Assembly: GCF_044324875.1 (NCBI RefSeq)
Contig: NZ_CP172185.1
Strand: one strand, 5' to 3'
Source of the DNA: Escherichia coli
GTDB taxonomy: Bacteria; Pseudomonadota; Gammaproteobacteria; Enterobacterales; Enterobacteriaceae
DNA length: 64,000 bases
The notes beneath the pieces are model-generated. The model was not told where the DNA came from. It did not search any database and saw only the letters and a program-made list of their open reading frames with translations. The number at the start of each line of letters is the position of its first letter. The stretch's first letter is position 1. Shown here one piece after another: positions 5,895 to 64,000 of this stretch. Position numbers and translations under genes: made by a program.

Positions 5895-7670
5895 TTAACG
5901 CTTGTACAACGGGCCGTAGTTCTGGCAAGCGCGGTAATCCTGGCCTTCAATATCCATGCCGTGCGCGGCCCAGGCAGAAGGACGATACACTTTGGTCTCT
6001 TCAACGTTGTGCATACATACCGGGATACGCAGCATGGAGGCAAGAGTGATAAAGTCTGCGCCAACGTGGCCGATGGTTAGAACCCCGTGGTTAGCGCCCC
6101 AGTTCGCCATTACCGAGTACACATCCGTAAACGGCCCTTTACCGGTGAGGCGCGGTGCAAACCAGGTGGTTGGCCAGGTTGAGTTGGTGCGTTTGTTGAG
6201 GATGTCATGCACATCCTTCGGCAATTCCACGCTCCAGCCTTCCGCGATTTGCAGTACCGGTCCCAGGCCTTTGATGATGTTGACACGAGTCATGGTGAAC
6301 GGGACGCCGCCTTCGGTAAGGAAGCGGGAAGAGTAACCGCCGCCACGGAAGTATTCGTGGATCGCCGGGCACCATTCGGTAGCGGCGAGGCAAGCGTCAG
6401 CCTCTTGCTGAGAGATTTCCCAGTGTGGCTTCATCGTCGGGTTACCTTCGCTGTCGCGTTGTTTACAGGAACCGTCCAGCGCAGCAGAACCGGAGTTGAT
6501 CAAATGGATGATGCCGTGTTCTGCCAGTCCATCGAGTTTATGCCCCGTTACACGTTCAATTGCTTCTGGTGACCAGTAGGTACGCACATCGGCAAATACC
6601 TGAGCGGTGCCGGTGAGCTGGTGACCCATTAGCATTGCCACGCCGTTAAGACTGTCGTTTTCGGTCGCCACGACAAAGGGTTCGCGCACGCCATTCCAGT
6701 CAAATGAACTGTTAAGGATCGCTTCGGCGGTGTCGCCATTGGGATATTGATCGGTCCAGTGGCGTTGTCCCTGGAAGCCCGCAGCGATGGCGTTGTAGCC
6801 AAGTGATTCTTCTACGCGACCAATATCGGCCAGTTTGCTGTTGCCTTGCATCATGTCGCGGATACACATCGCCATCAGTAAACTTTCGCGCAGAACTGCG
6901 CGGCTTTGCTCGGCATTGCGTTGATACTGTTTGTTATTTTCATCTTCGCCATAGCGGAAGTTTTTATCAGCCCAGGCCAGCGCCATTTCCAGTTCGGCTT
7001 CGTCGTAAATCTTCTGATCGATACGGCGACGAAGTTCGGTCATATCCACCGCCTGGACTTTCATTCCCAGCCAGGATTCAAAGAAGTTGTGATCAACAAT
7101 AGAACCGGCGATACCCATCGAAACGCCACCCAGCGACAGATAGCTTTTACCTTTCATGCTGGCGACGGCCAAACCGGCGCGGGCAAAGCGCAGCAGTTTT
7201 TCTTCAACATCAGCAGGAATCGATGTGTCATCGGCATCCTGAACGTCATGACCGTAAATGGAGAATGCCGGGATGCCTTTCTGGCTGTGAGCTGCCAAAG
7301 CCGCAGCCAGGTAAACAGCGCCGGGGCGTTCAGTGCCGTTAAAGCCCCAAATGGCTTTCGGGCGGGTTGGATCCATGTCGATAGTTTCACTGCCATAGCA
7401 CCAGCAAGGCGTTACCGTAATGGTGAGGCCTACATTCTGACTGCTGAATTTTTCTTCGCAAGCAGCGGCTTCAGCCATACCCGCGATACAGGTATCGGAA
7501 ATGACACACTCGACGGCAGCTCCGCAGGCATGGCGCAGTTTCTCGGTCAGCAGTGCGGCCGTAGCTTTCGCCATATTCATTGTTTGTTCTTCAAGCGACT
7601 CACGAACACCCATGCGACGACCGTCAATAACCGGGCGGATACCAATTTTCGGTAAGCTGATTTTTTTCAT
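5895..7670 (-). CDS. fucI: L-fucose isomerase FucI
   Basis: 591-aa ORF beginning [19 protein letters not shown]. Confidence 0.95.
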
Positions 7671-7702: not shown

Positions 7703-9019
7703 TCAGTTAGTTGCCGTTTGAGAACGGAAACGGGCAAAGATAAAGATGACCGCGAAGCAGAGTGCGGGGATCAGTTCAGCAGTGGGGATGTTGCCCGCCG
7801 CGTCACTGACAAAACCCATGACCGGAGTGACAATACCGCCGCCAATAATGGTCATAACGATGAAGGACGAACCGTATTTGGTGTCCTGGCCGAGATTCTT
7901 AATGCCCAGCGAGAAGATTGTTGGGTACTGAATCGACATAAAGGCACTGCATAATGTCAGGGCTATTAAGCCCACATGACCGCCAGCGAAGGCTGAGATC
8001 AGGCACAGTGCCATAGCGATTAATGCGTAGGCTGCCAGGACTTTGTGTGGTGCGAAGCGACTGATGAGCCAGGTACCGGTGAAACGACCAATAAAGAAGC
8101 ACACCATGGTTCCGGTTAAATAGTTAGCGGCAAAGCCTGCGGTCATACCTGGAATTTCTTCTACAGCGTAGCGAATCAAATAGCTCCAGCAGGCCGTTTG
8201 CGCGCCGACATAGCAGAATTGCGCTAATACCGCCCAGCGCCAGTGACGAATACGCGCCAGACGAGAAAGCGATGCGGAGAACGATCCTTGTTTGGCGTCA
8301 CTGTGATTATCACTCTGCAATGCCGGGAATTTCGTCAGCATGATCAGCAGGGCGACCAGTAACACGATAGCCACGATGATCATATAAGGTGTCTGTACCG
8401 ATAATACCAGGCTGTGTTTATACGCACTCAATTGCTCTGGAGACATTTTATCGAGAACGTCTTGCGATTGATGTGGCACGTTAGACAAAATAAGACTTTG
8501 CCCAAAGACAACCGCGATAATTGCGCCAAACGAGTTAAATGTTTGCGCAAGATTTAAGCGGAAGTGACCACTGCTTTCCGGCCCTAATACCGTAACAAAA
8601 GGGTTTGCGGCAGTTTCCAGACAACCTAATCCGGCTGCAATAATAAATAGGCCAACTAAAAATAAGGTGTAGTTCATTATTTCTGCAGCGGGCCAGAATA
8701 ATGCAGCGCCCAAGGCATATAAAAATAATCCGGTAATAATCCCTGCTTTATAACTGAGTTTTTTCATCAATATCCCAGCAGGGATTGGGATAATGAAATA
8801 ACCAAAGTAAAAGGCCGATTGGATCAGGCCAGCCTGGAAATTTGTCAGCGTAAAAGCCTGCTGGAATTGAGGTAATAAAATGTCGTTAAGGTTATTGGCT
8901 ACCGCCCAAAGAAAAAACAGTGAGCACAGCAGCGCGAATGGAATAATGTAACTTCTGCTTTGCCCTGCATCTTTATCTACCGCACGGTAACTCTGCGTTT
9001 GTATTGATGTGTTTCCCAT
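7703..9019 (-). CDS. fucP: L-fucose:H+ symporter FucP (MFS)
   Basis: 438-aa polytopic membrane ORF; synteny. Confidence 0.95.
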   Translation of the reverse strand: MGNTSIQTQSYRAVDKDAGQSRSYIIPFALLCSLFFLWAVANNLNDILLPQFQQAFTLTNFQAGLIQSAFYFGYFIIPIPAGILMKKLSYKAGIITGLFLYALGAALFWPAAEIMNYTLFLVGLFIIAAGLGCLETAANPFVTVLGPESSGHFRLNLAQTFNSFGAIIAVVFGQSLILSNVPHQSQDVLDKMSPEQLSAYKHSLVLSVQTPYMIIVAIVLLVALLIMLTKFPALQSDNHSDAKQGSFSASLSRLARIRHWRWAVLAQFCYVGAQTACWSYLIRYAVEEIPGMTAGFAANYLTGTMVCFFIGRFTGTWLISRFAPHKVLAAYALIAMALCLISAFAGGHVGLIALTLCSAFMSIQYPTIFSLGIKNLGQDTKYGSSFIVMTIIGGGIVTPVMGFVSDAAGNIPTAELIPALCFAVIFIFARFRSQTATN

Positions 9020-11493: not shown

Positions 11494-13727
<2,234 letters not shown>

Positions 13728-13784
13728 AGGAAATACATCGCGTTAAAACGGAGGAAGCGCCGCCCGAAAGCGGCGCGAAAGGAC

Positions 13785-15074
13785 TTAGCTGAACAGAGAG
13801 TAGAAGATTGCGGAGATTGCAATCAGACCCATCACGACAACGAATACGTTGCTGATGTGACCGCTGTACTTACGCATTGCCGGTACTTTCTGAATTGCGT
13901 ACATCGGCATCAGGAACAGGATCATCGCGATGATTGGGCCGCCCAGGGTTTCAATCATACCCAGGATGCTCGGGTTCAGGGTGGCAACAATCCAGGTCGT
14001 TACCAGCATGAACAGCGCAGTAATACGGTTCAGCTTGTTGATTTCGATAGACTTACCTTTACCACGCAGAGATTTAATCACCATACCGTTGAAGCCTTCA
14101 CGTGCGCCCAGGTAGTGGCCGAGGAAGGATTTGGTGATAGCGATAATCGCGATAATCGGTGCCATCCACGCGATAACCGGTGCGTTAAAGTGGTTAGCCA
14201 GGTAAGACAGAATCGAGATGTTCTGCTCTTTAGCCGCAGCCAGGTCTGCCGGAGTCAGGCTCAGTACGCAGCTGAATACGAAGAACATTACGGTCAGCAC
14301 CATCATGATGTGTGCGAATGCCAGGATCTTCGAGCATTTCTGTTCTGCCATATCGCCGTACTCTTCACGCTTCGCAACAGCGAAAGAAGAGATGATCGGA
14401 GAGTGGTTGAACGAGAACACCATTACCGGAATTGCCAGCCACAGGGTCATCCACAGACCGTTTCCGGTTGCCGATGCAGTGTCCAGAGACAGCGTTTCCA
14501 GTGCTGCGCCGTTCCACTGCGGGATCAGGTACAGAGCCAGCAGCATCAGTACGCCAACAAACGGGAATACCAGAATACTCATCGCTTTAACGATCATCTG
14601 CTCACCGAAGCGAACGATGGTCATCATACCCACGATCAGGATCAGCGACAGAATCGCACGCGGCGGTGGTGTCATACCCAGCTGGTGAGACATGAAGCTT
14701 TCAACTGTATTGGTGATTGCCACGCTATAAACCAGCAGGATCGGGTAGATAGCGAAGAAGTAGAGCAGGGTAATCAGTTTACCTGCGCCAATACCAAAGT
14801 GTTCTTCTACAACCTCGGTGATGTCTTCGCCCGGGTTTTTACCAGACAGTACGAAGCGAGTCAGACCGCGGTGAGCAAAAAATGTCATCGGGAACGCAAG
14901 GATAGCCATGATGATCAGCGGGATCATACCGCCAACACCGGCGTTGATTGGCAGGAACAGCACGCCCGCGCCGATTGCCGTGCCGTAAAGGCCCAGCATC
15001 CACATGGTGTCTGTCTTGCGCCAGGCACTACGAGAGTCTTTCGACGCAATCGTGCTGGTTTGAGTCGTTTCCAT
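13785..15074 (-). CDS. sdaC: serine:H+ symporter SdaC
   Basis: 429-aa polytopic HAAAP-family transporter ORF; synteny with sdaB. Confidence 0.95.
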
Positions 15075-36091: not shown

Positions 36092-36985
36092 TTACCAGCG
36101 ACCGGACGCGCCGCCACCGCCAGAAGAACCGCCCCCGCCGCTAAATCCGCCGCCACTTGAGCCGCCACCGGAAGAGGATGAAGAAGAACCTTTTCTTGAA
36201 GCTCTTTCTTTACTGAGTTTTTTGTATTTGGCGCGTAGCTTTTTATTAACGATAAGCCAAAAAATAACCAGTGGTACGATAGCAAAAGGCGTGAGCATAC
36301 CGCAGGCAACGATTAAATTCGTCCATGGTCCTGGCTCGGCAACATAGAGGAATACCATCCCATAAATTCCGCCAGTCAGTGCTATCCAGGGTAAATTCGA
36401 CGGATCGGTAAAAACAATAAAATATGAAAGTACCGCCAGCAATATAATTACAGCAAGCGATAATGGAATAGGGGGATTGATACTGTAATAATCCCCCCTG
36501 TCTTCCGGTAATTCACCATTCAACAGAAGCGCTCCGATATTTTCGCTTGCCAGTGTTAACCCACCCATCAAGTCATCACTTTTGAAGGCTGGGATTAATA
36601 TATTACGGATAATCTTCGCTGCTTGCAGATCGGTAACCACCCCTTCCAGCCCGTAGCCCACTTCTATACGGACAGCATGATCTTCCCAGGCAACCAGCAG
36701 TAAAATACCATCGTTTCGCTGCTTATCTCCCAGTTTCCAGCTATCAAAAACGCGTGTTGCATATTGTTCAATGGTATCGTCTCCGGTGGATGGCACTATT
36801 AATACGGCGACCTGGGCCCGTGTTTTTTGTGTGATATCCTGCAGCTGTTGTGTCAGTGATTGTTGTTCAGACGTGCTTAACGTACCAGTAATATCGGTCA
36901 CCTGTTGGCGCAGCTCCGGCACAGCAATTTGCTGGGCAAGCCCAGGAAGGCACCATAAAGTAAGTAGAAAAAAGATTAAGCGCAT
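36092..36985 (-). CDS. ygcG: TPM-domain membrane protein (YgcG-like), paralog C
   Basis: 297-aa ORF: signal peptide, TPM/DUF477-like domain, hydrophobic segments, Gly/Ser-rich tail ending GRW; symbol assigned by position next to eno only. Confidence 0.7.
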   Translation of the reverse strand: MRLIFFLLTLWCLPGLAQQIAVPELRQQVTDITGTLSTSEQQSLTQQLQDITQKTRAQVAVLIVPSTGDDTIEQYATRVFDSWKLGDKQRNDGILLLVAWEDHAVRIEVGYGLEGVVTDLQAAKIIRNILIPAFKSDDLMGGLTLASENIGALLLNGELPEDRGDYYSINPPIPLSLAVIILLAVLSYFIVFTDPSNLPWIALTGGIYGMVFLYVAEPGPWTNLIVACGMLTPFAIVPLVIFWLIVNKKLRAKYKKLSKERASRKGSSSSSSGGGSSGGGFSGGGGSSGGGGASGRW

Positions 36986-36990
36986 AATGA

Positions 36991-38139
36991 TTACCAGCGT
37001 CCGGATGAACCGCCGCCTCCTGAAGAACCACCACCACCGCGGAAAGAATTTCTCGACGAAGAGCGAGAATGAGCATTACGATTCCCCGTTTTCCTGTTGC
37101 TTTTTTCTCCTGACCCCAGTTTAAGATTGCCAGTAAATTTGGCCACAATGATCAGCAGAACTATGCCAGCAATGGTTATTGGGCCGATAAAATGATCAAT
37201 TAGCCCAATAATTGTTGAGATGAATGCAATATCTTTATTACTGGCGAACACCAGGCACCATCCCACAATAATTATCAGCATCACGACAAACAATGAATTT
37301 CGTCCTGATTCACGAACCTGCGGAGTCTTCTTTTGTTTTTTCACTTTAGTGTTTTTATTTTTGGGGGCCAGCATCATAGGAAATGCGCGGCACATATTAA
37401 AAACTACCGCGAGACGCTGCCAGCAGGTTGTTGCTAACAATAAACTAAAACAAACGACCGATACCCGCCGAATGATGACATCGTCCTGAAAGGAGAAAAA
37501 CCAGACCATAGGGGTAATCATCGATATCATCCATATGCCACGCCCTGGGCGGCTGGCAAATCGCCAGAGGACAACGATGGCAACGATCATCAGCAGTGTC
37601 CAGGCAAGACAAGGCAGCGAACGTTGCGGATTAGCAAACAGATGATTGGCTAAAGCATCCAAAGGGCTAAGGTTCGCTTTGATATGGGTAAACTGTGCGA
37701 TGCTTTCAATTCCGCCCGTTAATCCAGCAAAGAGATTGTTTTTTTCGAATTCTGGCTGCATATGGTAACGAACAATTTGCGCAGCTTGTTCCGGCGGCAA
37801 CATCTGTTCCAGTCCATGTCCAATCTTCATTGACGCCAGCCCTTCCGGCCATACGACGAGAATTAAGATACCTTCGCCATATCGCTTCTCTCCAACGGGT
37901 TTCCAGTGATATACCCCGTATCTCTGCGAGGCTGCAAGTTTAATGTTTTTGCCCCCTGTGGTCGGCGTGACCAACACGGCCACCTGGAAGTGGTTTTGCT
38001 GCACGAGAGTCTGTAATTGTTGAGTTAAAGCAGTTTGTTCTTCTGTCGTTAATGTCCCGGTTAAGTCAGTTACTGAAGGCAATTGTTCAGCGAATACCTG
38101 AAAACCGCATAGCATCAGAAGTAAGAGAAAAATACGCAT
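36991..38139 (-). CDS. TPM-domain membrane protein, divergent paralog B
   Basis: 382-aa ORF: signal peptide, TPM-like N-domain, several hydrophobic segments, Lys-rich linker, Gly/Ser tail ending GRW; 5 bp upstream of paralog C. Confidence 0.7.
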   Translation of the reverse strand: MRIFLLLLMLCGFQVFAEQLPSVTDLTGTLTTEEQTALTQQLQTLVQQNHFQVAVLVTPTTGGKNIKLAASQRYGVYHWKPVGEKRYGEGILILVVWPEGLASMKIGHGLEQMLPPEQAAQIVRYHMQPEFEKNNLFAGLTGGIESIAQFTHIKANLSPLDALANHLFANPQRSLPCLAWTLLMIVAIVVLWRFASRPGRGIWMISMITPMVWFFSFQDDVIIRRVSVVCFSLLLATTCWQRLAVVFNMCRAFPMMLAPKNKNTKVKKQKKTPQVRESGRNSLFVVMLIIIVGWCLVFASNKDIAFISTIIGLIDHFIGPITIAGIVLLIIVAKFTGNLKLGSGEKSNRKTGNRNAHSRSSSRNSFRGGGGSSGGGGSSGRW

Positions 38140-38153
38140 ATCAATTCCTTTTG

Positions 38154-39047
38154 TTACCAGCGCCCGGAAGCGCCACCGCCACCAGATGAACCGCCACCAC
38201 CGCTGAAATTGTCATTGTTGAATGAAGAGGATGACGATGATGAATAGTGGGAGGAAGAATTGCTTCTTGTATGGCGTGATGGCTGGTTGGCATCACGCAT
38301 CGAATCCCGAACCTTTTTGCCGAAGGGGGTAAAAGCGATGGCGACAGCCAGGAACGGTGTGGCGAAGCAGAGTAATGTTGCGAGTACTCCCCAGCTTCCG
38401 CTGAAGCCTGCTATAGGTAAAACAAAGGCCAGTACAATAGCTGCGAAGCAAATTACTCCCAGCGTTTTGATATATCCTCTGGCAGAAATAAACGTCAGTA
38501 CTATCGCCCAGACTAACAAAGCCCACCAACCGCTAAAAGGCAAAGGGTGATCGGTCGGTGTTATCGTTGCTAAATTATTCCCCGTCAGACGACTTTCAAT
38601 ATCGCTGATTCCCTTTTGCAAACCACCAGCCAGGTCCCCTTTTTTAAATGCCGGAATAATACTGTTGCGAATAATTTTCCCGGACTGTGCATCCGTAATA
38701 ATACCTTCCAGTCCGTAACCGATTTCAATACGCACGGTATGATCCTGCCAGGCGACTAACAGTAGAACGCCATCATCGTGGTCTTTATCACCCGGTTTCC
38801 AGCTATCGAATACCCGCGTTGCGTACTGCTCGATGGTTTCATCGCCTGTTGTTTCAACCACTAACACGACCAACTGTGCGTTGTTTTTTTGCGTCAGGGC
38901 TTTAATCTGGTTGGTCAGGGTGTTTACTTCACTGTTTGTCAATGTGCCGGTTAAGTCATTCACATACCTGGGTGATTCAGGTACTGGAATTTGTGTGGCA
39001 AACACAGATGAACAGAAGAAAGCCATAAGGAAGATAAAATTTCGCAT
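38154..39047 (-). CDS. TPM-domain membrane protein, paralog A
   Basis: Close paralog of 36092-36985; ORF runs to 39077, but the start at 39047 (MRNFIFLMAFFCSSVFA signal peptide, GGAAG RBS) avoids overlapping lemA. Confidence 0.7.
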   Translation of the reverse strand: MRNFIFLMAFFCSSVFATQIPVPESPRYVNDLTGTLTNSEVNTLTNQIKALTQKNNAQLVVLVVETTGDETIEQYATRVFDSWKPGDKDHDDGVLLLVAWQDHTVRIEIGYGLEGIITDAQSGKIIRNSIIPAFKKGDLAGGLQKGISDIESRLTGNNLATITPTDHPLPFSGWWALLVWAIVLTFISARGYIKTLGVICFAAIVLAFVLPIAGFSGSWGVLATLLCFATPFLAVAIAFTPFGKKVRDSMRDANQPSRHTRSNSSSHYSSSSSSSFNNDNFSGGGGSSGGGGASGRW

Positions 39048-39060
39048 ATAACTTCCCCGC

Positions 39061-39663
39061 TTAATGCGCATTAGCATTCTGGCTAAAATCTATTATTGGT
39101 GCTTTACTCACAGCTGCGACGTCATCCGGCAAATAATTTTTCTTCGGTGTGTAATCCATGACCTTTGCGGTTAATACAGCGGGGAATTTGCGGATAGTGA
39201 CATTATATTGTTCAATGGCTTTAATATATCTTCCTCGCGCAACGGCAATTCTATTTTCACTTCCTTCGAGCTGTACCATTAAATTTTGATAGAGTTCCTG
39301 AGCTTTTAAATCAGGGTAACGTTCACTAATTATCGTTAACTGACCGAGAGTGCGAGACACCTGCGCCTGGGCTTGTTGCCAGGCTTGTAATTTTTGCGCA
39401 TCTCCCGGAGCTTGCTGAAGATCGCTACTGGCGCGATTAGCCTGGCTACGTGCCAATGTTACGGCTTCCAGTACCTCTTGTTCATGGCTGGAATAACCTT
39501 TAATACTGGCGACAAGATTAGGAATAAGATCGGCGCGACGTTGATATTGATTCAATACCTCAGACCAGGAGGCGTTAACCTGCTCATCATAGGTTTGAAT
39601 ATCGTTATATCCACAGCCTGATAAATTGGCAATAAATATAATTACGATGAATATCCTGAGCAT
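39061..39663 (-). CDS. lemA: LemA-family lipoprotein
   Basis: 200-aa ORF with lipoprotein signal (LSGC lipobox) and LemA-like helical body; first gene of a four-gene minus-strand operon. Confidence 0.75.
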   Translation of the reverse strand: MLRIFIVIIFIANLSGCGYNDIQTYDEQVNASWSEVLNQYQRRADLIPNLVASIKGYSSHEQEVLEAVTLARSQANRASSDLQQAPGDAQKLQAWQQAQAQVSRTLGQLTIISERYPDLKAQELYQNLMVQLEGSENRIAVARGRYIKAIEQYNVTIRKFPAVLTAKVMDYTPKKNYLPDDVAAVSKAPIIDFSQNANAH

Positions 39664-40845: not shown

Positions 40846-41118
40846 GAGTTCCCCGCGCCAGCGGGGATAAACCGCTTCATCTGTCGGGCTAACTGGACAA
40901 AGAAACGAGTTCCCCGCGCCAGCGGGGATAAACCGTCGGTTTGACATCAAAGAAGCCATCAATCAGGGAGTTCCCCGCGCCAGCGGGGATAAACCGGTCT
41001 GGCCATAGGAACAAAGAAATTTGTCTTTGAGTTCCCCACGTCAGCGGGGATAAACCGGACACAGAGCGCCGCTATAGCGCCTATGCCAAGAGTTCCCCGC
41101 GCCAGCGGGGATAAACCA
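40846..41118 (+). CRISPR. type I-E CRISPR array (CRISPR2.1 position), 5 repeats and 4 spacers
   Basis: 29-bp repeats GAGTTCCCCGCGCCAGCGGGGATAAACCG at 40846, 40907, 40968, 41029 (variant CCCCACGTCAG) and 41090 (terminal, ends A); 32-bp spacers at 40875-40906, 40936-40967, 40997-41028, 41058-41089. Confidence 0.95.
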
Positions 41119-41571: not shown

Positions 41572-41709
41572 ATATTCCTTGTAAAAACAGGGATAAACCG
41601 AACTAGTTAAAGTTTTTATTATGTTCCCTGCATCAGCGGGGATAAACCGGACTTGTTATCATTTTTTAAGTTGTCGAACTTATGTTCCCCGCGTCAGCGG
41701 GGATAACCA
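41572..41709 (+). CRISPR. degenerate CRISPR remnant (CRISPR2.2-3-like)
   Basis: Three decayed repeat-like units ending GGGGATAAACCG (41572-41600, 41621-41649, 41682-41709, the last with a 1-bp deletion); intervening segments of 20 and 32 bp; AT-rich leader-like region upstream. Confidence 0.6.
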
Positions 41710-41755
41710 TTCAGGTATGTTCAGGCCGGGCAGTTTCCCGCCCGGTCTTCCTCAC

Positions 41756-56815: not shown

Positions 56816-57550
56816 ATGTCCAAACTCGATCTAAACGCCCTGAACGAACTGCCGAAGGTAGATCGCATTCTGGCGCTGGCAGAAACTAACGCCGAACTGG
56901 AAAAACTGGATGCTGAAGGCCGCGTTGCCTGGGCGCTGGATAATCTGCCCGGTGAATATGTACTTTCTTCCAGTTTCGGCATTCAGGCGGCGGTGAGCCT
57001 GCATCTGGTGAATCAGATTCACCCGGATATCCCGGTGATCCTGACCGATACGGGTTATCTGTTCCCGGAAACCTACCGCTTTATTGACGAGTTAACGGAC
57101 AAACTCAAGCTCAACCTGAAAGTGTACCGCGCTACCGAAAGCGCCGCCTGGCAGGAAGCGCGCTACGGCAAACTGTGGGAGCAGGGTGTTGAAGGCATTG
57201 AAAAGTACAATGACATCAACAAAGTCGAACCGATGAACCGGGCGCTGAAAGAACTGAATGCGCAAACGTGGTTTGCTGGCCTGCGCCGCGAACAATCCGG
57301 CAGTCGCGCCAATTTACCGGTGCTGGCAATTCAGCGTGGCGTATTTAAAGTGCTGCCGATTATCGACTGGGATAACCGAACGATATATCAGTATCTGCAA
57401 AAACATGGCCTGAAATATCATCCATTATGGGACGAAGGATATTTATCCGTCGGTGATACCCATACAACCCGTAAATGGGAACCCGGCATGGCGGAAGAAG
57501 AAACGCGTTTCTTTGGCTTAAAAAGGGAATGTGGGCTGCACGAAGGGTAA
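56816..57550 (+). CDS. cysH: phosphoadenosine phosphosulfate (PAPS) reductase CysH
   Basis: 244-aa form [23 protein letters not shown] with GAGGA RBS; ORF-track start at 56663 runs through the REP and is rejected. Confidence 0.95.
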
Positions 57551-57815
57551 AATATCGTACCGCTTAATAAACGTCTCTGTCTGAAAAGATGGGGGCGTTT
57601 TTATTTTGCGAGCAGCATTCCTGATTTTAAACGTGAACGCCGCTGGAAGAATTATCAAGTATAGAATGGCGTTGGGTGCTTGAGGCTGTCTGGCGTTAAG
57701 CATTCGCGAGGTTCCAGATGGACAAAAGCCCCAGGCGATATTTCTATCAACCTGAGGCCAGCGTTCGAACCTAAGCAATTCGAATGTTAGTCTCTTCTTT
57801 GCAGGGAGGCAAGAC

Positions 57816-57968
57816 ATGCTGACAAAATATGCCCTTGTGGCAATCATCGTACTGTGTTGTACAGTACTGGGATTCACGCTGATGGTAGGCGACTCGTTGT
57901 GTGAGTTGAGTATCAGAGAACGTGGTATGGAGTTTAAGGCAGTTCTCGCTTACGAATCGAAGAAGTAG
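57816..57968 (+). CDS. Hok/Gef-family type I toxin (50 aa), possibly the hokX/sokX locus
   Basis: [50 protein letters not shown]: one TM helix, conserved LCE...AYES Hok signature, GGGAGG RBS 6 bp upstream, GC hairpin 57974-57995 after the stop; missing from the ORF track because it is under 60 aa. Confidence 0.7.
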
Positions 57969-58319
57969 CCACCACGCGGGGGTAAAACCCCGCGTATTGA
58001 ATTGTGATGGTTTGGTCTCCTGCACCCTTTTTTAATTTATATTGTTTATGTGAATATTATGCCTATGTTTATTATTCATATATATTACGGATGAAAATTA
58101 TTTGATTATTCATAATGTGCAAAATGGCATCTGAATCGATCGCAGTTTGGCATTCGAATCGATCATGATTTGGCATCCATCTCCGATCACAGTTTGGCAT
58201 CACAATCGATCACGATTTGGCATGCTTCCGATCATTGATTGGCATCCTGCCAGTCACTCCGGGAATTAACTCTTTTCACCACAGTCTCCATTGCCGTGTT
58301 TAAACCAGTGGAGACGTCA

Positions 58320-59885
58320 ATGTCCAGAAAGAGAAAATCCAGGAGCACTATGGAAACCTGTTTTAAGATCCTTCAGCTCAAGTTCGACAAGAAGCTGACT
58401 AACCGTTGTATCGGACTGACGTTACACATCAGCGCCTCAACCGTTTTTGAGGTTCTTGCCCGCTTCAAAGCCTCTTCTCTGTCATGGCCATTACCTGCTG
58501 ATATATCCCATGACACGCTGGAGAAACTCATTTTTCCGCCCAAAGACACCTTTGCATCAGAGCTTGTAATGCCTGACATGTTGTACTTCGATACGGAAAT
58601 GAGAAAACCAGGTGTGACGCGGCAACTGTTGTGGATGGAATACAAGGCACAGGCGGGTAACAAAGCGATGGGATACTCGCACTTCTGCCGTTGCTACCGG
58701 GAGTGGAAAAAAACGCGACGTCTCTCCATGCGCCAGGAGCATCGTGCCGGCGAAAAGCTTTTTATCGACTTCTGTGGTCCTACGGTTCCTGTTATTAATC
58801 CGGACACCGGTGAGATACGCCGCGTGGCAATCTTCGTGGCCGTAATGGGGGCGTCCAACTATACCTACGTTGAAGCGTGCGAAGGTCAGGACATGATGTC
58901 ATGGTTAAATGCCCACAGCCGTTGCCTGACCTTCCTGGGCGGCGTACCGAAGCTGCTCATCCCCGATAACCTCAGAAGCGCAGTGAAAAAGGCCGATCGA
59001 TATGAGCCTGTCATCAACGACAGTTATCAGGCACTGGCTGAGCACTATGGCACGGTTATCATCCCGGCCCGACCACGCAAACCTAAAGATAAACCAAAAG
59101 CAGAAAACGGCGTCCTCATCGTTGAACGATGGCTTCTTGCCCGCATCCGTAATGAAACCTTCCACACGCTCAGGGCGCTGAATGCGCGCCTTAGGGAGTT
59201 ACTGACAGACATGAATAACCGGCCAATGAAGGGGTACGGCAATCAAACCCGTGCAGAACGCTTCCGCATACTGGATGCGCCAGCACTCTCTCCGCTGCCT
59301 CTGGCACCTTATGAATACACGGAATACAAAGCTGTGAAGGTTGGCCCTGACTACCACGTTGAATATGCCCGTCACTGGTACTCCGTTCCACACGAACTGG
59401 TCGGTCAGCGTCTGTCACTGAAGGCGGGGCAGTCGGTGGTACAGCTCTGGCACAAGGGGCAGTGTGTGGCGCAACATCCGCGCAGCACACATGAATATAA
59501 ACACACAACCAATCCGCTTCACATGCCAGAGCGCCACCGGCAGCACGGGACATGGACACCGGAACGCCTGATCGAGCAGGGAAAACGTACGGGCCCGTCC
59601 ACAGGCCGGGTGGTTGAATCCATGCTGAAGGCAAAACCCCATCCGGAACTGGCTTATCGTGCAGTTCTGGGGCTGCTGGCACTTCAGAAAAAATACGGCC
59701 CGGAACGGCTGGAAAAGGCCTGTTACGTTGCCCTGCACTATAACGCCCCTGACAGACGCTTTATCGACAATCTGCTGCGTCACCATCGGGAGAACCTGGA
59801 GCTTCCATTATCCCGCCAGGGCGAACAACATCCGGCATATGCTTCAGAGCATGAAAACCTGCGTGGTCCGGGCTACTACCACTGA
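58320..59885 (+). CDS. istA: IS21-family transposase IstA
   Basis: N-terminal HTH and DDE integrase core; start at MSRKRKSRS (58320) with GGAG RBS preferred over the ORF-track start 58239. Confidence 0.8.
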   Translation: MSRKRKSRSTMETCFKILQLKFDKKLTNRCIGLTLHISASTVFEVLARFKASSLSWPLPADISHDTLEKLIFPPKDTFASELVMPDMLYFDTEMRKPGVTRQLLWMEYKAQAGNKAMGYSHFCRCYREWKKTRRLSMRQEHRAGEKLFIDFCGPTVPVINPDTGEIRRVAIFVAVMGASNYTYVEACEGQDMMSWLNAHSRCLTFLGGVPKLLIPDNLRSAVKKADRYEPVINDSYQALAEHYGTVIIPARPRKPKDKPKAENGVLIVERWLLARIRNETFHTLRALNARLRELLTDMNNRPMKGYGNQTRAERFRILDAPALSPLPLAPYEYTEYKAVKVGPDYHVEYARHWYSVPHELVGQRLSLKAGQSVVQLWHKGQCVAQHPRSTHEYKHTTNPLHMPERHRQHGTWTPERLIEQGKRTGPSTGRVVESMLKAKPHPELAYRAVLGLLALQKKYGPERLEKACYVALHYNAPDRRFIDNLLRHHRENLELPLSRQGEQHPAYASEHENLRGPGYYH

Positions 59886-59901
59886 CAGAAGGAACAACAG
59901 T

Positions 59902-60657
59902 ATGAGTGATAACCTGTTAAACAAACTGACCCAACTGAAACTCCCGGCGATGGCCGGGAGCCTGATACGGCAGCGGGAAACGCCTCAGACCTACGACGAA
60001 CTGTCGTTCGAGGAAAGGCTGACGCTGCTGGTTGATGACGAGCTTCTGAGCAGGGAAAACAGCCGTGTGGCACGGTTGAGAAAAAATGCCGGCCTGAAAT
60101 ACCAGGCAACACCGGAAGGGCTGCGCTATCCGGCCTCAAGAGGTCTGCGGGCTGAACAGATGAGAGAACTGCTGAACGGCCACTACATAACCCACAGGAA
60201 AAACCTGCTGATAACCGGTCCGACAGGATGTGGCAAGAGCTGGATAGCCAATGCGCTGGGCGAACAGGCATGTCGACAGAAACACAGCGTCCGGTACTGT
60301 AGAACCGGGCGATTACTGGAACAACTGGCTCAGGGACGTGTTGATGGCAGCTGGCTGAAATATCTGAAACAGTTGCAAAAAATACAGGTTCTAATCCTGG
60401 ACGATCTGGGGCTGGAACAGTTAAGTAACGCCCAGTGTAATGACCTTCTGGAGCTCATAGAGGATCGTTACGGACAAAGCAGCACGATAGTGGTAAGCCA
60501 GTTCCCGGTAGATAAATGGCATGGTCTGATGGAGAACCCAACAACAGCAGATGCCATCCTGGACAGACTGGTACATAACTCACACCGAGTGGTCCTTCAG
60601 GGAGAGTCACTGAGGAAAAATCCCCCGGTAGTGGAAAGCAGCGAAAAAACGCGTTAA
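59902..60657 (+). CDS. istB: IS21-family ATP-binding helper IstB
   Basis: 251-aa form MSDNLLNKL... with Walker A GPTGCGKSW and Walker B LILDDLG; ORF-track start 59659 overlaps istA. Confidence 0.85.
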   Translation: MSDNLLNKLTQLKLPAMAGSLIRQRETPQTYDELSFEERLTLLVDDELLSRENSRVARLRKNAGLKYQATPEGLRYPASRGLRAEQMRELLNGHYITHRKNLLITGPTGCGKSWIANALGEQACRQKHSVRYCRTGRLLEQLAQGRVDGSWLKYLKQLQKIQVLILDDLGLEQLSNAQCNDLLELIEDRYGQSSTIVVSQFPVDKWHGLMENPTTADAILDRLVHNSHRVVLQGESLRKNPPVVESSEKTR

Positions 60658-60808
60658 AAAGCGGTAGAAAAAGTTAAGTTCCCGGTTGATCGAATGGATG
60701 CGAATCGCTGATCGGACTTCGATGCCAATCCGTGATCGAATAGAGCGGAATACGCACATAATGTAAATATTTTATTGAACGATATATATCACAGATAATT
60801 TTTAATAT

Positions 60809-63508
60809 ATGCGTAAATATCCTTTAAGTTTACTGAAGGATAAAAATATTGTGACTTTTTTTGATTTCTGGGGAAAAACCCGACGCGGCGAGAAAGACGG
60901 GGGCGACGACTATCACCTTCTTTGCTGGCATTCGCTGGATGTAGCCGCGATGGGCTATTTAATGGTTAAAAGCAATTGCTTCGGGCTGACTGACTATTTT
61001 CGTCAACTAGGTTTCGCTGATACGGAGCAGGCAGCACAATTTTTCGCCTGGCTATTGTGCTGGCACGATACTGGAAAATTTGCCCGCTCTTTTCAGCAAC
61101 TTTACCTGCACCCACAACTCAAGGTTCCGGAAGGCGCAAGAAAGAATTACGAAAAGATCTCTCATTCAACGCTGGGCTACTGGCTGTGGCATCATTATTT
61201 AAGTGAATACGAAGAATTGCTTCCTTCATCTTCACTCTCTCCGCGCAAACTTAAACGGGTGATGGAGATGTGGATGCCCATAACTACCGGGCATCATGGT
61301 CGCCCGCCTGACCGTATTGATGAACTGGATAATTTTCTGCCTGAAGACAAAGCTGCCGCGCGAGATTTTCTTCTTGAAATCAAACCACTGTTTCCGCTCA
61401 TAGAGATCCCCGCATTCTGGGATGATGATGAGGGCATTGAACTTATAAAACACCTTTCCTGGTATATCTCTGCAACCGTCGTGCTCGCAGACTGGACGGG
61501 TTCGTCAACGCGATTTTTTCCACGCGTCGCACACCCAATGGATATTAAAGGTTACTGGCAGAAAACTTTAGTTCAGGCTCAAAACGCCTTAACCGTCTTT
61601 CCTCTAAAAGCAAAAGTCGCGCCTTTCACCGGAATTAATACGCTGTTTCCTTTTATTGAGAATCCGACACCGTTACAGCAAAAGGTGCTGGATCTGGATA
61701 TCAGCCAGCCAGGGCCACAGTTATTTATTCTGGAAGATGTGACTGGCGCAGGTAAAACGGAAGCGGCGCTTATCCTGGCGCACAGGTTGATGGCTGCGGG
61801 TAAAGCGCAGGGTTTGTTTTTTGGCCTGCCAACAATGGCAACGGCCAATGCCATGTACGATCGACTGGTCAAAACCTGGCTTGCTTTCTATTCGCCAGAG
61901 TCCCGCCCCAGCCTGGTGCTGGCACACAGTGCCCGAACATTAATGGACCGCTTTAATGAATCACTCTGGTCCGGTGATTTAGTCGGGTCAGAAGAACCGG
62001 ATGAACAAACGTTCAGTCAGGGATGTGCGGCCTGGTTTGCCGACAGTAACAAGAAGGCGCTACTGGCTGAAATTGGCGTCGGCACGCTGGATCAGGCGAT
62101 GATGGCTGTGATGCCGTTCAAACATAATAATCTGCGGCTTCTGGGACTGAGTAACAAAATCCTGCTGGCTGATGAGATCCATGCCTGTGACGCTTACATG
62201 TCATGCATTCTTGAAGGGCTGATCGAGCGGCAGGCGCGTGGCGGAAACAGCGTCATTTTGCTTTCTGCCACGTTATCTCAACAGCAGTGCGACAAACTCG
62301 TTGCTGCCTTTGCGCGTGGTACAGAGGGCCAGCAAGAAGCTCCGTTCCTGGAAAAGGATGATTACCCCTGGCTGACGCACGTTACGAAATCCGATGTGCA
62401 TTCACACCGGGTAGCGACGCGCAAAGACGTTGAGCGTAGCGTGAGCGTGGGTTGGCTTCATAGCGAACAAGAATGTATTGCGCGTATCGAATCGGCAGTA
62501 AGTCAGGGGAAATGCATCGCCTGGATCCGGAATTCTGTCGATGACGCTATTAAGGTTTATCGTCAGTTGCTTGCCCGCGGCGTCATTCCTGCTTCCAGCC
62601 TTTCTCTGTTTCATAGCCGCTTTGCTTTTAGCGATCGCCAGCGAATTGAAACGGAAACGCTGGCACGCTTCGGTAAAGAAGATAGCTCACAGCGTGCCGG
62701 AAAAGTCCTCATTTGTACTCAGGTCTTAGAGTCGAGCGTTGATTGCGATATGGACGAAATGATTTCCGACCTGGCCCCTGTTGATTTGCTGATCCAGCGA
62801 GCGGGGCGATTACAGCGGCATATCCGCGATATTAATGGTCAGTTAAAGCGTGACGGAAAAGACGAGCGTTCCCCTCCTGAATTGCTGATTCTGGCCCCCG
62901 TCTGGGACGACGCTCCAGGTGACGAATGGTTCGGCAGTGCCATGCGTAACAGTGCATATGTCTATCCCGATCATGGACGAATCTGGCTGACGCAGCGTGT
63001 ACTGCGTGAGCAAGGCGCTATTCAAATGCCACACGCAGCCCGCCTTCTTATTGAATCAGTCTACGGTGAGGACGTGGTAATGCCGGAAGGATTTGCCCGC
63101 AGCGAGCAGGAGCAAGTGGGCAAATATTACTGCGATCGCGCAATGGCTAAAAAGTTTGTGCTGAACTTCAGGCCTGGCTATGCCGCCAATATCAACGATT
63201 ACCTTCCGGAAAAGCTGTCGACACGTCTGGCGGAGGAGTCTGTTTCCCTGTGGCTGGCTACCTGTATTGCCAGTGTGGTGAAGCCTTATGCCAACGGTGC
63301 TCACGCATGGGAAATGAGCGTTGTCAGAGTGCGTCGAAGCTGGTGGAAAAAACATCGGGATGAGTTTTCTTTACTGGAAGGGGAAGCGTTCAGGCAGTGG
63401 TGCATTGAACAGCGGAAAGATCCGGAGATGGCAAACGTGATTTTAGTTACCGATGACGAAAGTTGCGGGTATTCGGCTATGGAAGGATTGACTGGCAAGG
63501 TTGGTTGA
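60809..63508 (+). CDS. cas3: CRISPR-associated helicase/nuclease Cas3 (type I-E, non-K-12 sequence variant)
   Basis: 899-aa ORF: N-terminal HD domain (HSLDVAAMGYL, CWHDTGK), DEAD/DEAH helicase (Walker A GAGKTEA, LADEIHA); clearly diverged from the K-12 Cas3 sequence I recall. Confidence 0.85.
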   Translation: MRKYPLSLLKDKNIVTFFDFWGKTRRGEKDGGDDYHLLCWHSLDVAAMGYLMVKSNCFGLTDYFRQLGFADTEQAAQFFAWLLCWHDTGKFARSFQQLYLHPQLKVPEGARKNYEKISHSTLGYWLWHHYLSEYEELLPSSSLSPRKLKRVMEMWMPITTGHHGRPPDRIDELDNFLPEDKAAARDFLLEIKPLFPLIEIPAFWDDDEGIELIKHLSWYISATVVLADWTGSSTRFFPRVAHPMDIKGYWQKTLVQAQNALTVFPLKAKVAPFTGINTLFPFIENPTPLQQKVLDLDISQPGPQLFILEDVTGAGKTEAALILAHRLMAAGKAQGLFFGLPTMATANAMYDRLVKTWLAFYSPESRPSLVLAHSARTLMDRFNESLWSGDLVGSEEPDEQTFSQGCAAWFADSNKKALLAEIGVGTLDQAMMAVMPFKHNNLRLLGLSNKILLADEIHACDAYMSCILEGLIERQARGGNSVILLSATLSQQQCDKLVAAFARGTEGQQEAPFLEKDDYPWLTHVTKSDVHSHRVATRKDVERSVSVGWLHSEQECIARIESAVSQGKCIAWIRNSVDDAIKVYRQLLARGVIPASSLSLFHSRFAFSDRQRIETETLARFGKEDSSQRAGKVLICTQVLESSVDCDMDEMISDLAPVDLLIQRAGRLQRHIRDINGQLKRDGKDERSPPELLILAPVWDDAPGDEWFGSAMRNSAYVYPDHGRIWLTQRVLREQGAIQMPHAARLLIESVYGEDVVMPEGFARSEQEQVGKYYCDRAMAKKFVLNFRPGYAANINDYLPEKLSTRLAEESVSLWLATCIASVVKPYANGAHAWEMSVVRVRRSWWKKHRDEFSLLEGEAFRQWCIEQRKDPEMANVILVTDDESCGYSAMEGLTGKVG

Positions 63509-63605
63509 GATGCCTGCGACAGGGCTCTCTGAATAGTTGATACACCGAAAAGGATGGAATGATGGACAACCGACCTGGGATGGTCTTTTTTACGAGAGGA
63601 TGCGT

Positions 63606-64000
63606 ATGAACTCGTTTTCACTTCTGACAACCCCGTGGTTGCCCGTTCGTTATAAAGACGGAACGACAGGCAAACTGGCGCCTGTCGATCTGGCGGATGA
63701 AAATGTTGTCGATATTGCTGCGCCACGGGCAGATCTCCAGGGAGCGGCATGGCAGTTTTTGCTGGGGCTACTACAAACCAGCTTTGCGCCAAAAGATCAT
63801 CGTCGTTGGGATGATATCTGGGAAGACGGACTGGAATCTGAAAAGCTACGGGAAGCATTGCTGTCCTTAGAACACGCTTTCCAGTTTGGGCCAGATTCCC
63901 CTTCATTTATGCAGGATTTCGAGGCGCTCACAGGAGATAAAGTTCAGGTCGCTTCGCTACTGCCTGAGATTCCCGGCGCTCAAACAACGAAGTTTAATAA
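63606..64000 (+). CDS. casA: Cse1/CasA (Cascade large subunit), N-terminal fragment truncated by the window edge
   Basis: ATG at 63606 after a GAGAGGA RBS; open frame to the window end (MNSFSLLTTPWLPVRYKDG...); W-x-PVR N-terminal motif resembles Cse1; directly downstream of cas3. Confidence 0.65.
   Translation, partial: MNSFSLLTTPWLPVRYKDGTTGKLAPVDLADENVVDIAAPRADLQGAAWQFLLGLLQTSFAPKDHRRWDDIWEDGLESEKLREALLSLEHAFQFGPDSPSFMQDFEALTGDKVQVASLLPEIPGAQTTKFN

Follow-up and report, generated by a model that had tools for sequence, protein, structure and literature searches.

An intact cas3 and the 5' part of cse1, lying at the end of the 64,000-nucleotide stretch of Escherichia coli DNA analysed here (the window), almost certainly belong to the published cas-E1 variant of the type I-E system, the resident majority form at the cysH-iap locus, and no evidence contradicts the identification as cas-E1. 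The preliminary description had proposed that this is the second I-E cas variant of E. coli; the proposal is borne out by an exact E1-specific primer site combined with low identity to the K-12 genes. The variant was defined by Almendros et al. (2014, mBio, PMC3903273) and also appears under the names "non-K12 variant" (Diez-Villasenor et al. 2013, PMC3737337) and "var. B-8552" (PMC12736100). Both E. coli I-E variants are already known, having been reported in 2013-2014 and re-described in 2025, and the locus here is the common one; the finding is therefore correct but ordinary and carries little weight as a discovery. The features of the locus are collected in Table 1.

Table 1. Features of the cas-E1 locus and the associated CRISPR-II repeats, in positions of the window.
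Feature	Position	Strand	Evidence or remark
CRISPR-II array (CRISPR2.2/2.3 type)	40846..41118	+	5 repeats of 29 nt, 61-nt spacing
Second, degenerate CRISPR-II repeat cluster	41572..41710	+	~0.5 kb from the first
hok/sok toxin-antitoxin locus	57674..57968	+	sok 57674-57831 (Rfam RF01794, 111.7 bits); hok CDS 57816-57968 (annotation transferred from strain 7/2)
Intact IS21-family element (ISSso4-like), 2,639 bp	58118..60756	+	NCBIfam IS21 transposase and IstB
AT-rich remnant between IS and cas3 ATG, 52 bp, 15.4% GC	60757..60808	+	Starts with the right CATAATG copy
cas3 (cas-E1), 899 aa as annotated	60809..63508 (stop codon included)	+	ORF; NCBIfam, Pfam and PADLOC Cas3e matches
Candidate alternative cas3 start GTG, giving 885 aa	60851..60853	+	GAAGGA before it at 60835-60840
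HD nuclease domain, aa 21-237	60869..61519	+	Pfam Cas3_HD
Target of E1-specific primer cas3E1-R (reverse complement)	60890..60909	+	One exact match, 0 expected by chance; primer from PMC3903273
SF2 helicase core, aa 306-676	61724..62836	+	TIGR01587 cas3_core; motifs in invariant alignment columns
cas3-cse1 spacer, 97 bp, 49.5% GC	63509..63605	+	Shine-Dalgarno GAGG at 63596-63599
cse1/casA/cas8e, 5' part, 131 codons, ending at the window end	63606..64000	+	TIGR02547, 1.4e-46; casA in 100%-identical genomes

The setting of the genes follows the published E1 layout. The gene order, cysH-hok/sok-cas3-cse1, is that of cas-E1, and the cysH-F primer site from the study that defined the variant (PMC3903273) was located at 57596-57616. 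According to the same study, hok/sok between cysH and cas3 marks cas-E1 loci and is absent from cas-E2 loci; K-12, which carries cas-E2, lacks hok and has kept only sokX, whereas the window has hok/sok. An Rfam scan of 57000-64000 returned nothing besides sok. Base composition was also compared: the GC content of cas3 is 50.6% here versus 44.7% in K-12, next to reported values of 50 versus 45 for cas3 of E1 and E2 (PMC12736100) and of 53.5% versus 45.6% as the mean over all cas genes (PMC3903273). For the two variants, PMC12736100 further lists cas3 genes of 2700 versus 2667 bp, a Cas3 protein identity of 29%, and casA genes of 1563 versus 1509 bp; the E1 figures for both gene lengths and the 29% identity agree with the genes described here.

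Direct comparison with K-12 revealed divergence along the whole of both proteins. Cas3 shares 29% identity with K-12 Cas3 by BLASTP (812 aa) and 30% by MAFFT, distributed as 26% in the HD domain, 37% in the helicase core and 25% in the C-terminal part, and for Cse1 the identity to K-12 CasA is 21% when the full-length protein is taken from a genome that is 100% identical over the part within the window. The statement in the preliminary description that Cas3 differs from K-12 throughout, and that the Cse1 N-terminus differs likewise, thus agrees with the alignments. An ordinary K-12-type cas3/casA is ruled out outright by these MG1655 alignments (29% and 21% protein identity), and it is also contradicted by megablast, in which the K-12 genes were found in 1,182 genomes and the window genes in 2,785. 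Placing Cas3/Cse1 with K-12 instead of with O157/IAI1 or Salmonella is likewise excluded by the respective identities (29% versus 95% versus 74%). Subtype I-E, gene order, chromosomal site, the 29-nt CRISPR-II repeat and the catalytic motifs are all shared between K-12 and the window.

The architecture of Cas3 was first assigned as HD plus helicase from the letters alone, and domain searches confirmed it. NCBIfam places cas3_HD at residues 38-233 and the helicase core cas3_core (TIGR01587) at 306-676, Pfam matches Cas3_HD at 21-237 and Cas3-like_C_2 (with DEAD weak, just under the cut-off), and the best PADLOC models are both Cas3e, at 952 and 667 bits. The Cas3 sequence equals that annotated in strain 7/2 (WP_001521158.1; 100% identity), internal stops are absent, and no inactivating lesions were found in cas3. 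The putative HD metal ligands (H41, H86, D87, H119, H162, H163 and D228) are conserved when the protein is aligned with its K-12 counterpart, with seven orthologues and with the structures from T. terrenum and T. fusca, and K90 is intact as well. The helicase motifs comprise Walker A GAGKT (K316), DEIH at 455-458, SAT at 486-488 and QRAGRLQR at 663-670 (QRAGR at 663-667), and the K-12 residues H74/D75, K320 and D452 correspond to H86/D87, K316 and D455. Lesions in such motifs had been raised at the outset as grounds for doubt; all HD and helicase catalytic residues proved intact. Among structurally characterised proteins, Cas3 of the window aligns with T. terrenum Cas3 (4Q2C) over residues 20-763 (E = 6.5e-77) and with T. 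fusca Cas3 (4QQW/6C66) over 221-788 (E = 3.7e-65); both come from other phyla and are distant in sequence, yet they combine an HD domain, two RecA-like domains and a C-terminal domain and have the HD ligands and helicase motifs in common with the window protein. The search matches included no solved enterobacterial Cas3 of the E1 type.

The translation start of cas3 may lie downstream of the annotated one, with the GTG at 60851 as a candidate alternative. All seven non-E. coli Cas3 orthologues start 14-16 residues downstream of the annotated ATG, and no Shine-Dalgarno sequence was found upstream of the ATG at 60809.

Of the cas genes of the source genome, the window covers cas3 and the first 131 codons of cse1. 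No lesion is visible in these cse1 codons, and the full-length Cse1 of the identical allele matches PF09481 (2e-110) and PADLOC Cas8e (609 bits). Strain 7/2, whose DNA matches 60757-64000 at 100% identity, carries the complete operon, running cas3-casA-casB-cas7-cas5-cas6-cas1-cas2-CRISPR. For E1, PMC3903273 further describes an L1-type leader beside the CRISPR2.1 array, located past the end of the window. Three of the five repeats in the first CRISPR-II array are exact copies of the K-12 repeat GAGTTCCCCGCGCCAGCGGGGATAAACCG, a 29-mer of which the K-12 CRISPR1 array has 10 copies, which upholds the remark that the nearby array uses the canonical I-E repeat. That array has the 29-nt repeats and ~32-nt spacers of the I-E type 2 repeat, and together with the degenerate cluster it matches the two-array CRISPR-II layout described in PMC3903273.

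By homology, Cse1 would act as the large subunit of Cascade, and crRNA from the 29-nt-repeat arrays would direct the complex to a PAM-flanked protospacer, where an R-loop would form. Cas3 would then be recruited by Cse1; its HD domain would make a nick in the displaced strand, along which the SF2 helicase of Cas3 would move 3'->5', degrading that strand. As far as its sequence tells, the E1 system of the window may be active.

The frequency of the two variants puts the label "divergent" into perspective. Megablast detected the window variant in 2,785 of 5,426 complete E. coli genomes (51%) and the K-12 (E2) variant in 1,182 (22%). The low identity to K-12 on which the label was built stands, but the K-12-centred wording does not, as E1 is the majority form of the species. 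On sequence evidence K-12 is the outlier, bearing the rarer variant, because the nearest non-E. coli relatives of E1 Cas3 come from Salmonella, Citrobacter and Klebsiella; the closest such proteins (Salmonella, Citrobacter, Raoultella and Klebsiella) are 69-75% identical, and within the same alignment Cas3 reaches 74% to Salmonella versus 30% to K-12, in line with the published grouping of E1 cas genes with those of Salmonella and E. albertii (PMC3903273). K-12 biology may not transfer to most E. coli, the E1 carriers; this concerns how the promoters are laid out, the H-NS/LeuO control located between cas3 and casA, and the motif used in spacer acquisition, reported as CTT for K-12 versus CWT (PMC3737337). 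The window allele itself is a minority E1 sub-allele, found at >=99% identity in 151-188 of the 2,785 carriers; its DNA is 100% identical to strain 7/2 and others and ~94% identical to IAI1, 042 and O55:H7.

The very low identity to the K-12 genes could be read as a recent import of the module from another genus in place of a resident E. coli variant, and the tract 57659-64000 does bear a mark of movement, matching unrelated E. coli lineages at 100% identity, whereas the flanking 24 kb reach at most 98.2% with any complete genome; an identical tract beside such a flank therefore indicates recent lateral exchange of the module. An inter-genus source is nevertheless highly improbable and already largely refuted: in 51% of complete E. 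coli genomes the module occupies this cysH-iap locus with an unchanged gene order, and the best protein matches outside E. coli reach just 69-75% identity. The common position and the distance of these relatives therefore point to exchange within the species, as described in PMC3903273, and the module is best regarded as the resident E1 variant.

The layout of the cas3-cse1 junction differs from that of K-12. A 97-bp spacer had been thought to leave little room for K-12-style control, and the comparison bears this out: the K-12 cas3-casA gap measures 414 bp at 29.5% GC, against 97 bp at 49.5% GC in the window. The K-12 gap reportedly holds the H-NS/LeuO-controlled Pcas (Pul 2010; Westra 2010). 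No consensus promoter or intrinsic terminator was detected in the 97-bp spacer, its RNA fold is no more stable than that of shuffles (z = -0.01), and its last ~45 nt are homologous to the end of the 424-bp Salmonella spacer. An antisense ORF of 201 aa (63301-63906, minus strand) spans the cas3/cse1 junction; it has no Pfam match and was treated as spurious.

Two related enterobacterial systems offer points of comparison. The I-E system of S. Typhi (Salmonella enterica) has a Cas3 that is 70-75% identical and likewise lies downstream of cysH; Salmonella I-E is H-NS-silenced (PMC8039139), and its 424-bp cas3-cse1 gap contains reverse-oriented CRISPR-repeat-like remnants and an AT-rich element. 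An AT-rich element of ~40 nt is common to Salmonella and E1, positioned before cse1 in the former and upstream of cas3 in the latter, and the similarity is significant (reached by 0 of 2000 composition-matched shuffles). In K. pneumoniae (NTUH-K2044 type), a different genus, Cas3 is 69-72% identical and the system comes directly after cysH with an AT-rich region upstream of cas3, and the locus examined resembles E1 in its very short cas3-cse1 gap, 11 bp here. It lacks hok/sok; its likeness to the E1 upstream element is marginal, being reached by 81 of 2000 shuffles. The NTUH-K2044 system is H-NS-repressed, functional, and interferes with plasmids (PMC4987720). According to reviews, transcription of I-E systems in E. 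coli is generally silent under laboratory conditions.

Taken with a GC content of 16-17% in the 100 bp upstream of E1 cas3, these comparisons suggest where control might reside. In E1 the principal region of silencing (H-NS-type) control may be the 17%-GC stretch upstream of cas3 and not the cas3-cse1 gap, a reading that draws on the GC-normal 97-bp spacer without a promoter- or terminator-like site, the 17% GC before cas3, and the Salmonella-like ~40-nt element. With control placed upstream of cas3, co-transcription of cas3 and the Cascade genes would be possible. It cannot simply be assumed for E1, since Salmonella, the nearest relative to have been studied, transcribes cas3 separately from the cse1-cas2-CRISPR operon (PMC8039139). 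Promoter scans found no consensus sigma-70 promoter in 60500-64000, which takes in the right end of the IS, its junction with the cas3 side and the spacer, and in the uninterrupted allele (13380-14100 of its locus) the sole promoter-like match fell inside hok and not in the AT-rich stretch.

In the window this AT-rich stretch is split by the IS21-family element, whose istA (58350-59885) and istB (59902-60657) lie on the same strand as cas3 and are identical to copies in other genomes. The insertion is flanked by a 7-bp target duplication, CATAATG, with the left copy at 58111-58117 and the right at 60757-60763, the IS ends having been set by comparing three copies, and the empty insertion site is present in strain 7/2. 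Without the insertion, the hok-cas3 region of an E1 strain measures 194 bp. Across the 5,426 complete E. coli genomes the IS/cas3 junction never occurs, nor does any GTDB species representative contain the exact 35-mer spanning it. A hybrid promoter at the junction, sought by eye with CATAAT as the -10, was rejected, its -35 candidates agreeing at no more than 2 of 6 positions.

The split may alter the expression of cas3, perhaps of the whole operon. Carried further, it could mean that the locus has become a remnant, decaying or silenced, in which the IS separates cas3 from its promoter and leaves the system non-functional here; an intact IS 52 bp before the cas3 ATG, within the only AT-rich, promoter-like stretch, fits such a state, and IS elements often inactivate or delete cas-E loci of E. 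coli and Shigella (PMC3903273; PMC10359306). We consider this somewhat unlikely, given that cas3 retains its full length and every catalytic motif, the visible cse1 bears no lesion, and both genes are 100% identical to an allele present in more than 150 complete genomes. Moreover, the IS is co-oriented with cas3 and no terminator is predicted between istB and cas3, so read-through is possible, and if the GTG at 60851 is the true start, 94 bp of native upstream sequence are left. A further arrangement, put forward tentatively and judged rather improbable, is that the E1 control region lies upstream of cas3, unlike in K-12 and Salmonella, with cas3-cas2 forming one unit, and that its split by the IS may uncouple the module from silencing, leaving it either off or driven by read-through. 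Set against an otherwise common cas-E1 locus, the IS21-family element before cas3 is the sole unusual local feature and did not figure in the preliminary description; it is also the one strain-specific point of note, as the interference nuclease, or the operon as a whole, could be expressed differently because of it.

The cas3-cse1 genes at the end of the window are the cas-E1 variant of the E. coli type I-E system, a type that is already known and is the usual state in this species. Two "substantially different" cas-E gene sets have been described in E. coli (Almendros et al. 2014, PMC3903273): E1, the primary set, which groups with Salmonella and E. albertii and adjoins hok/sok, and E2, the set of a minor group that includes K-12. 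The preliminary description had proposed the second E. coli I-E cas variant, and this is identified as published cas-E1 by an exact match to the E1-specific primer cas3E1-R at 60890-60909, by the adjoining hok/sok (sok at 57674-57831, 111.7 bits, Rfam), and by gene length. A 2025 survey gives 2700 versus 2667 bp for cas3, with 29% protein identity between the variants, and 1563 versus 1509 bp for casA (PMC12736100); the window allele agrees with the 2700 and 1563 bp figures. Primer cysH-F from the 2014 study also matches, at 57596-57616. The spacer-acquisition motif is unlike between the two variants, a functional difference (PMC3737337).

Direct alignment to the MG1655 locus, taken as the K-12 reference, bore out the reader's statement that both proteins differ from their K-12 counterparts. 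Cas3 shows 29% identity by BLASTP (812 aa) and 30% by global alignment (HD domain 26%, helicase core 37%, C-terminal part 25%), while full-length Cse1 shows 21% identity to CasA; its sequence was taken from strain 7/2, which matches window 60757-64000 at 100% DNA identity. The genes are indeed unlike K-12, but the label "divergent" is K-12-centred, since by megablast they occur in 2,785 of 5,426 complete E. coli genomes, against 1,182 for K-12 cas3-casA, since the nearest Cas3 proteins outside E. coli are far closer (Salmonella 70-75%, Raoultella and Citrobacter 73-74%, Klebsiella 69-72%, Cronobacter 55%), and since the window proteins outscore the K-12 proteins on I-E family models; K-12 is the outlier. 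Within E1, the window allele is found at ≥99% identity in only 151-188 genomes, and most carriers, including IAI1, 042, and O55:H7, are at ~94% DNA identity (Cas3 protein of IAI1 and DEC5D, 94.8%), an allele structure in keeping with the recombination that has been reported for cas-E1 genes (PMC3903273).

Features of the cas-E1 region and the CRISPR arrays (window positions unless a locus is named; L002, strain 7/2; L006, Salmonella)
Feature	Position	Strand	Remarks
CRISPR-II array	40846-41118		5 repeats
Degenerate repeat cluster	41572-41710		2-3 copies, 74-83% identical to consensus
~40-nt element, E1	L002 13934-13973; window ~58096-58117 plus 60757-60781		
~40-nt element, Salmonella	L006 ~5948-5987		upstream of cse1
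7-bp target duplication CATAATG	58111-58117 and 60757-60763		flanks the IS21-family element
IS21-family element	58118-60756		ISSso4-like, intact; directly upstream of cas3
istA	58350-59885	+	cas3 strand
istB	59902-60657	+	cas3 strand
cas3	60809-63508	+	uninterrupted ORF, 899 aa
cse1, 5' part	63606 (ATG) to window end	+	131 residues, cut by window end
Antisense ORF	63301-63906	-	201 aa

The HD-plus-helicase architecture claimed for Cas3 was supported by NCBIfam (HD domain and helicase core), by Pfam (Cas3_HD and Cas3-like_C_2, with DEAD weak and just under cut-off), and by PADLOC, whose top models were subtype I-E Cas3e. The protein can also be aligned to the solved Cas3 structures of T. terrenum (residues 20-763, E = 6.5e-77) and T. 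fusca (E = 3.7e-65), in both of which an ADW motif lines up with D228, the LADW aspartate. Residues H74, D75, K78, K320, and D452-E-V-H455 of K-12 Cas3 correspond to H86, D87, K90, K316, and D455-E-I-H458. In an alignment of the window protein with seven enterobacterial orthologues and K-12, the invariant positions were H41, D44, H86, D87, K90, H119, H162, and H163, together with the Walker A GxGKT, D455, E456, and H458 of the DExH box, SAT 486-488, and Q663-R-x-G-R667. These residues are conserved and cas3 has no internal stops; no inactivating lesion was found.

The 131 in-window Cse1 residues match TIGR02547, the Cse1/CasA equivalog (1.4e-46), and a GAGG at 63596-63599 precedes the start codon. 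An in-frame ATG at 63600 was rejected because it abuts this Shine-Dalgarno sequence and orthologues start MN(S/T)FSLL, so the 63606 start and the 97-bp spacer stand. For cas3, the real start may be GTG 60851 (GAAGGA at 60835-60840), which would give an 885-aa product; in all 7 non-E. coli orthologues the protein begins 14-16 residues downstream of the annotated ATG. Positions ~60780-60870 are nearly invariant across three E1 alleles, against 88-92% identity in the next few hundred cas3 bases, which hints at a constrained 5' leader. The antisense ORF, which runs across the spacer into both genes (3' end of cas3, 5' end of cse1), has no match in Pfam and is probably spurious; antisense transcripts have been reported from the Salmonella cas locus.

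The nearby CRISPR-II array keeps the canonical I-E repeat, as had been stated, with GAGTTCCCC...AAACCG as in K-12. The degenerate cluster ~0.5 kb past it reproduces the two-array CRISPR2.2/2.3 layout. Beyond the window end, the cas-E1-adjacent CRISPR2.1 array of strain 7/2 (L002 22658-23241) has the repeat GTGTTCCCCGCGCCAGCGGGGATAAATCG / ...AAACCG, which differs by 1-2 nt from that of CRISPR-II and K-12. Reverse-oriented I-E repeat-like sequences, CTTATCCCCGCTGGCGCGGGGAAC followed by a degenerate CGGTTTATCCC... copy, open the cas3-cse1 spacers of Salmonella (L006 5649-5760) and C. rodentium (L008 5649-5765) and look like a tiny inverted array remnant; they are absent from the E. coli E1 spacer.

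The short cas3-cse1 spacer remarked on earlier was confirmed at 97 bp and 49.5% GC, compared with 414 bp and 29.5% GC in K-12, where this region holds the H-NS/LeuO-controlled Pcas. Neither a consensus promoter nor a terminator was found in the 97 bp, and its RNA structure is not unusual. The AT-rich DNA of the uninterrupted E1 allele is instead upstream of cas3, in a 194-bp, 28%-GC hok-cas3 region whose final 100 bp are 16-17% GC. Among E1-like systems, the spacer is 11 bp in the K. pneumoniae locus compared, 424 bp in Salmonella, and 495 bp in C. rodentium; the final ~45 nt of the E. coli E1 spacer align to where the Salmonella spacer ends, and some 325 bp present in Salmonella are missing from E. 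coli E1. Directly upstream of E1 cas3 is an AT-rich ~40-nt element, ATTATTTGATTATTCATAATGTAAATATTTTATTGAACG, resembling one directly upstream of Salmonella cse1 (local score 42, reached by 0 of 2000 composition-matched shuffles). The IAI1 and DEC5D alleles do not keep its TTGAAC part, and its resemblance to the sequence upstream of K. pneumoniae cas3 is marginal (score reached by 81 of 2000 shuffles). The element may be a shared regulatory one that precedes a different gene from genus to genus. The E1 layout is consistent with, though no proof of, control from upstream of cas3 and joint transcription of cas3 and the Cascade genes. In S. Typhi, cas3 and the cse1 operon are separate transcription units (PMC8039139); the related system of K. 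pneumoniae NTUH-K2044 is H-NS-repressed and functional (PMC4987720). The position of the E1 control region is a minor, testable lead.

A second such lead is the IS21-family insertion, a strain-specific feature absent from the preliminary description. It lies 52 bp before the cas3 ATG, within a 17%-GC stretch and the ~40-nt element, and the empty site is present in strain 7/2. The IS/cas3 junction was covered in none of the 5,426 complete E. coli genomes, and the junction 35-mer was not in GTDB species representatives. No predicted terminator separates istB from cas3, so read-through into cas3 could occur; silencing of cas3 is just as possible. Insertion of IS elements within or close to cas-E loci has been described before (PMC3903273, PMC10359306).

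With the IS left out, window 57659-64000 agrees with strain 7/2 at 100% identity, and the hok/sok-cas3-cse1 tract does so with about 150 other genomes as well. The chromosome before 57659 is 91-99% identical to strain 7/2, with cysH (56817-57551) a locally divergent patch (91-97%), and the 24-kb backbone at 34000-57658 reaches at best 98.2% identity to any complete E. coli genome. This identical tract beside a diverged backbone, with the last mismatch at 57658, just before the sok match, shows that hok/sok and cas-E1 were recently exchanged between lineages by recombination, as proposed earlier for cas-E (PMC3903273). Elsewhere in the window, the two blocks without a BLAST match in strain 7/2 are 7703-9019 and 36092-39663. 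Strain 7/2 has a sugar ABC-transporter island in place of fucP, and between eno and queE the window carries a four-gene TPM-domain/LemA-like block.
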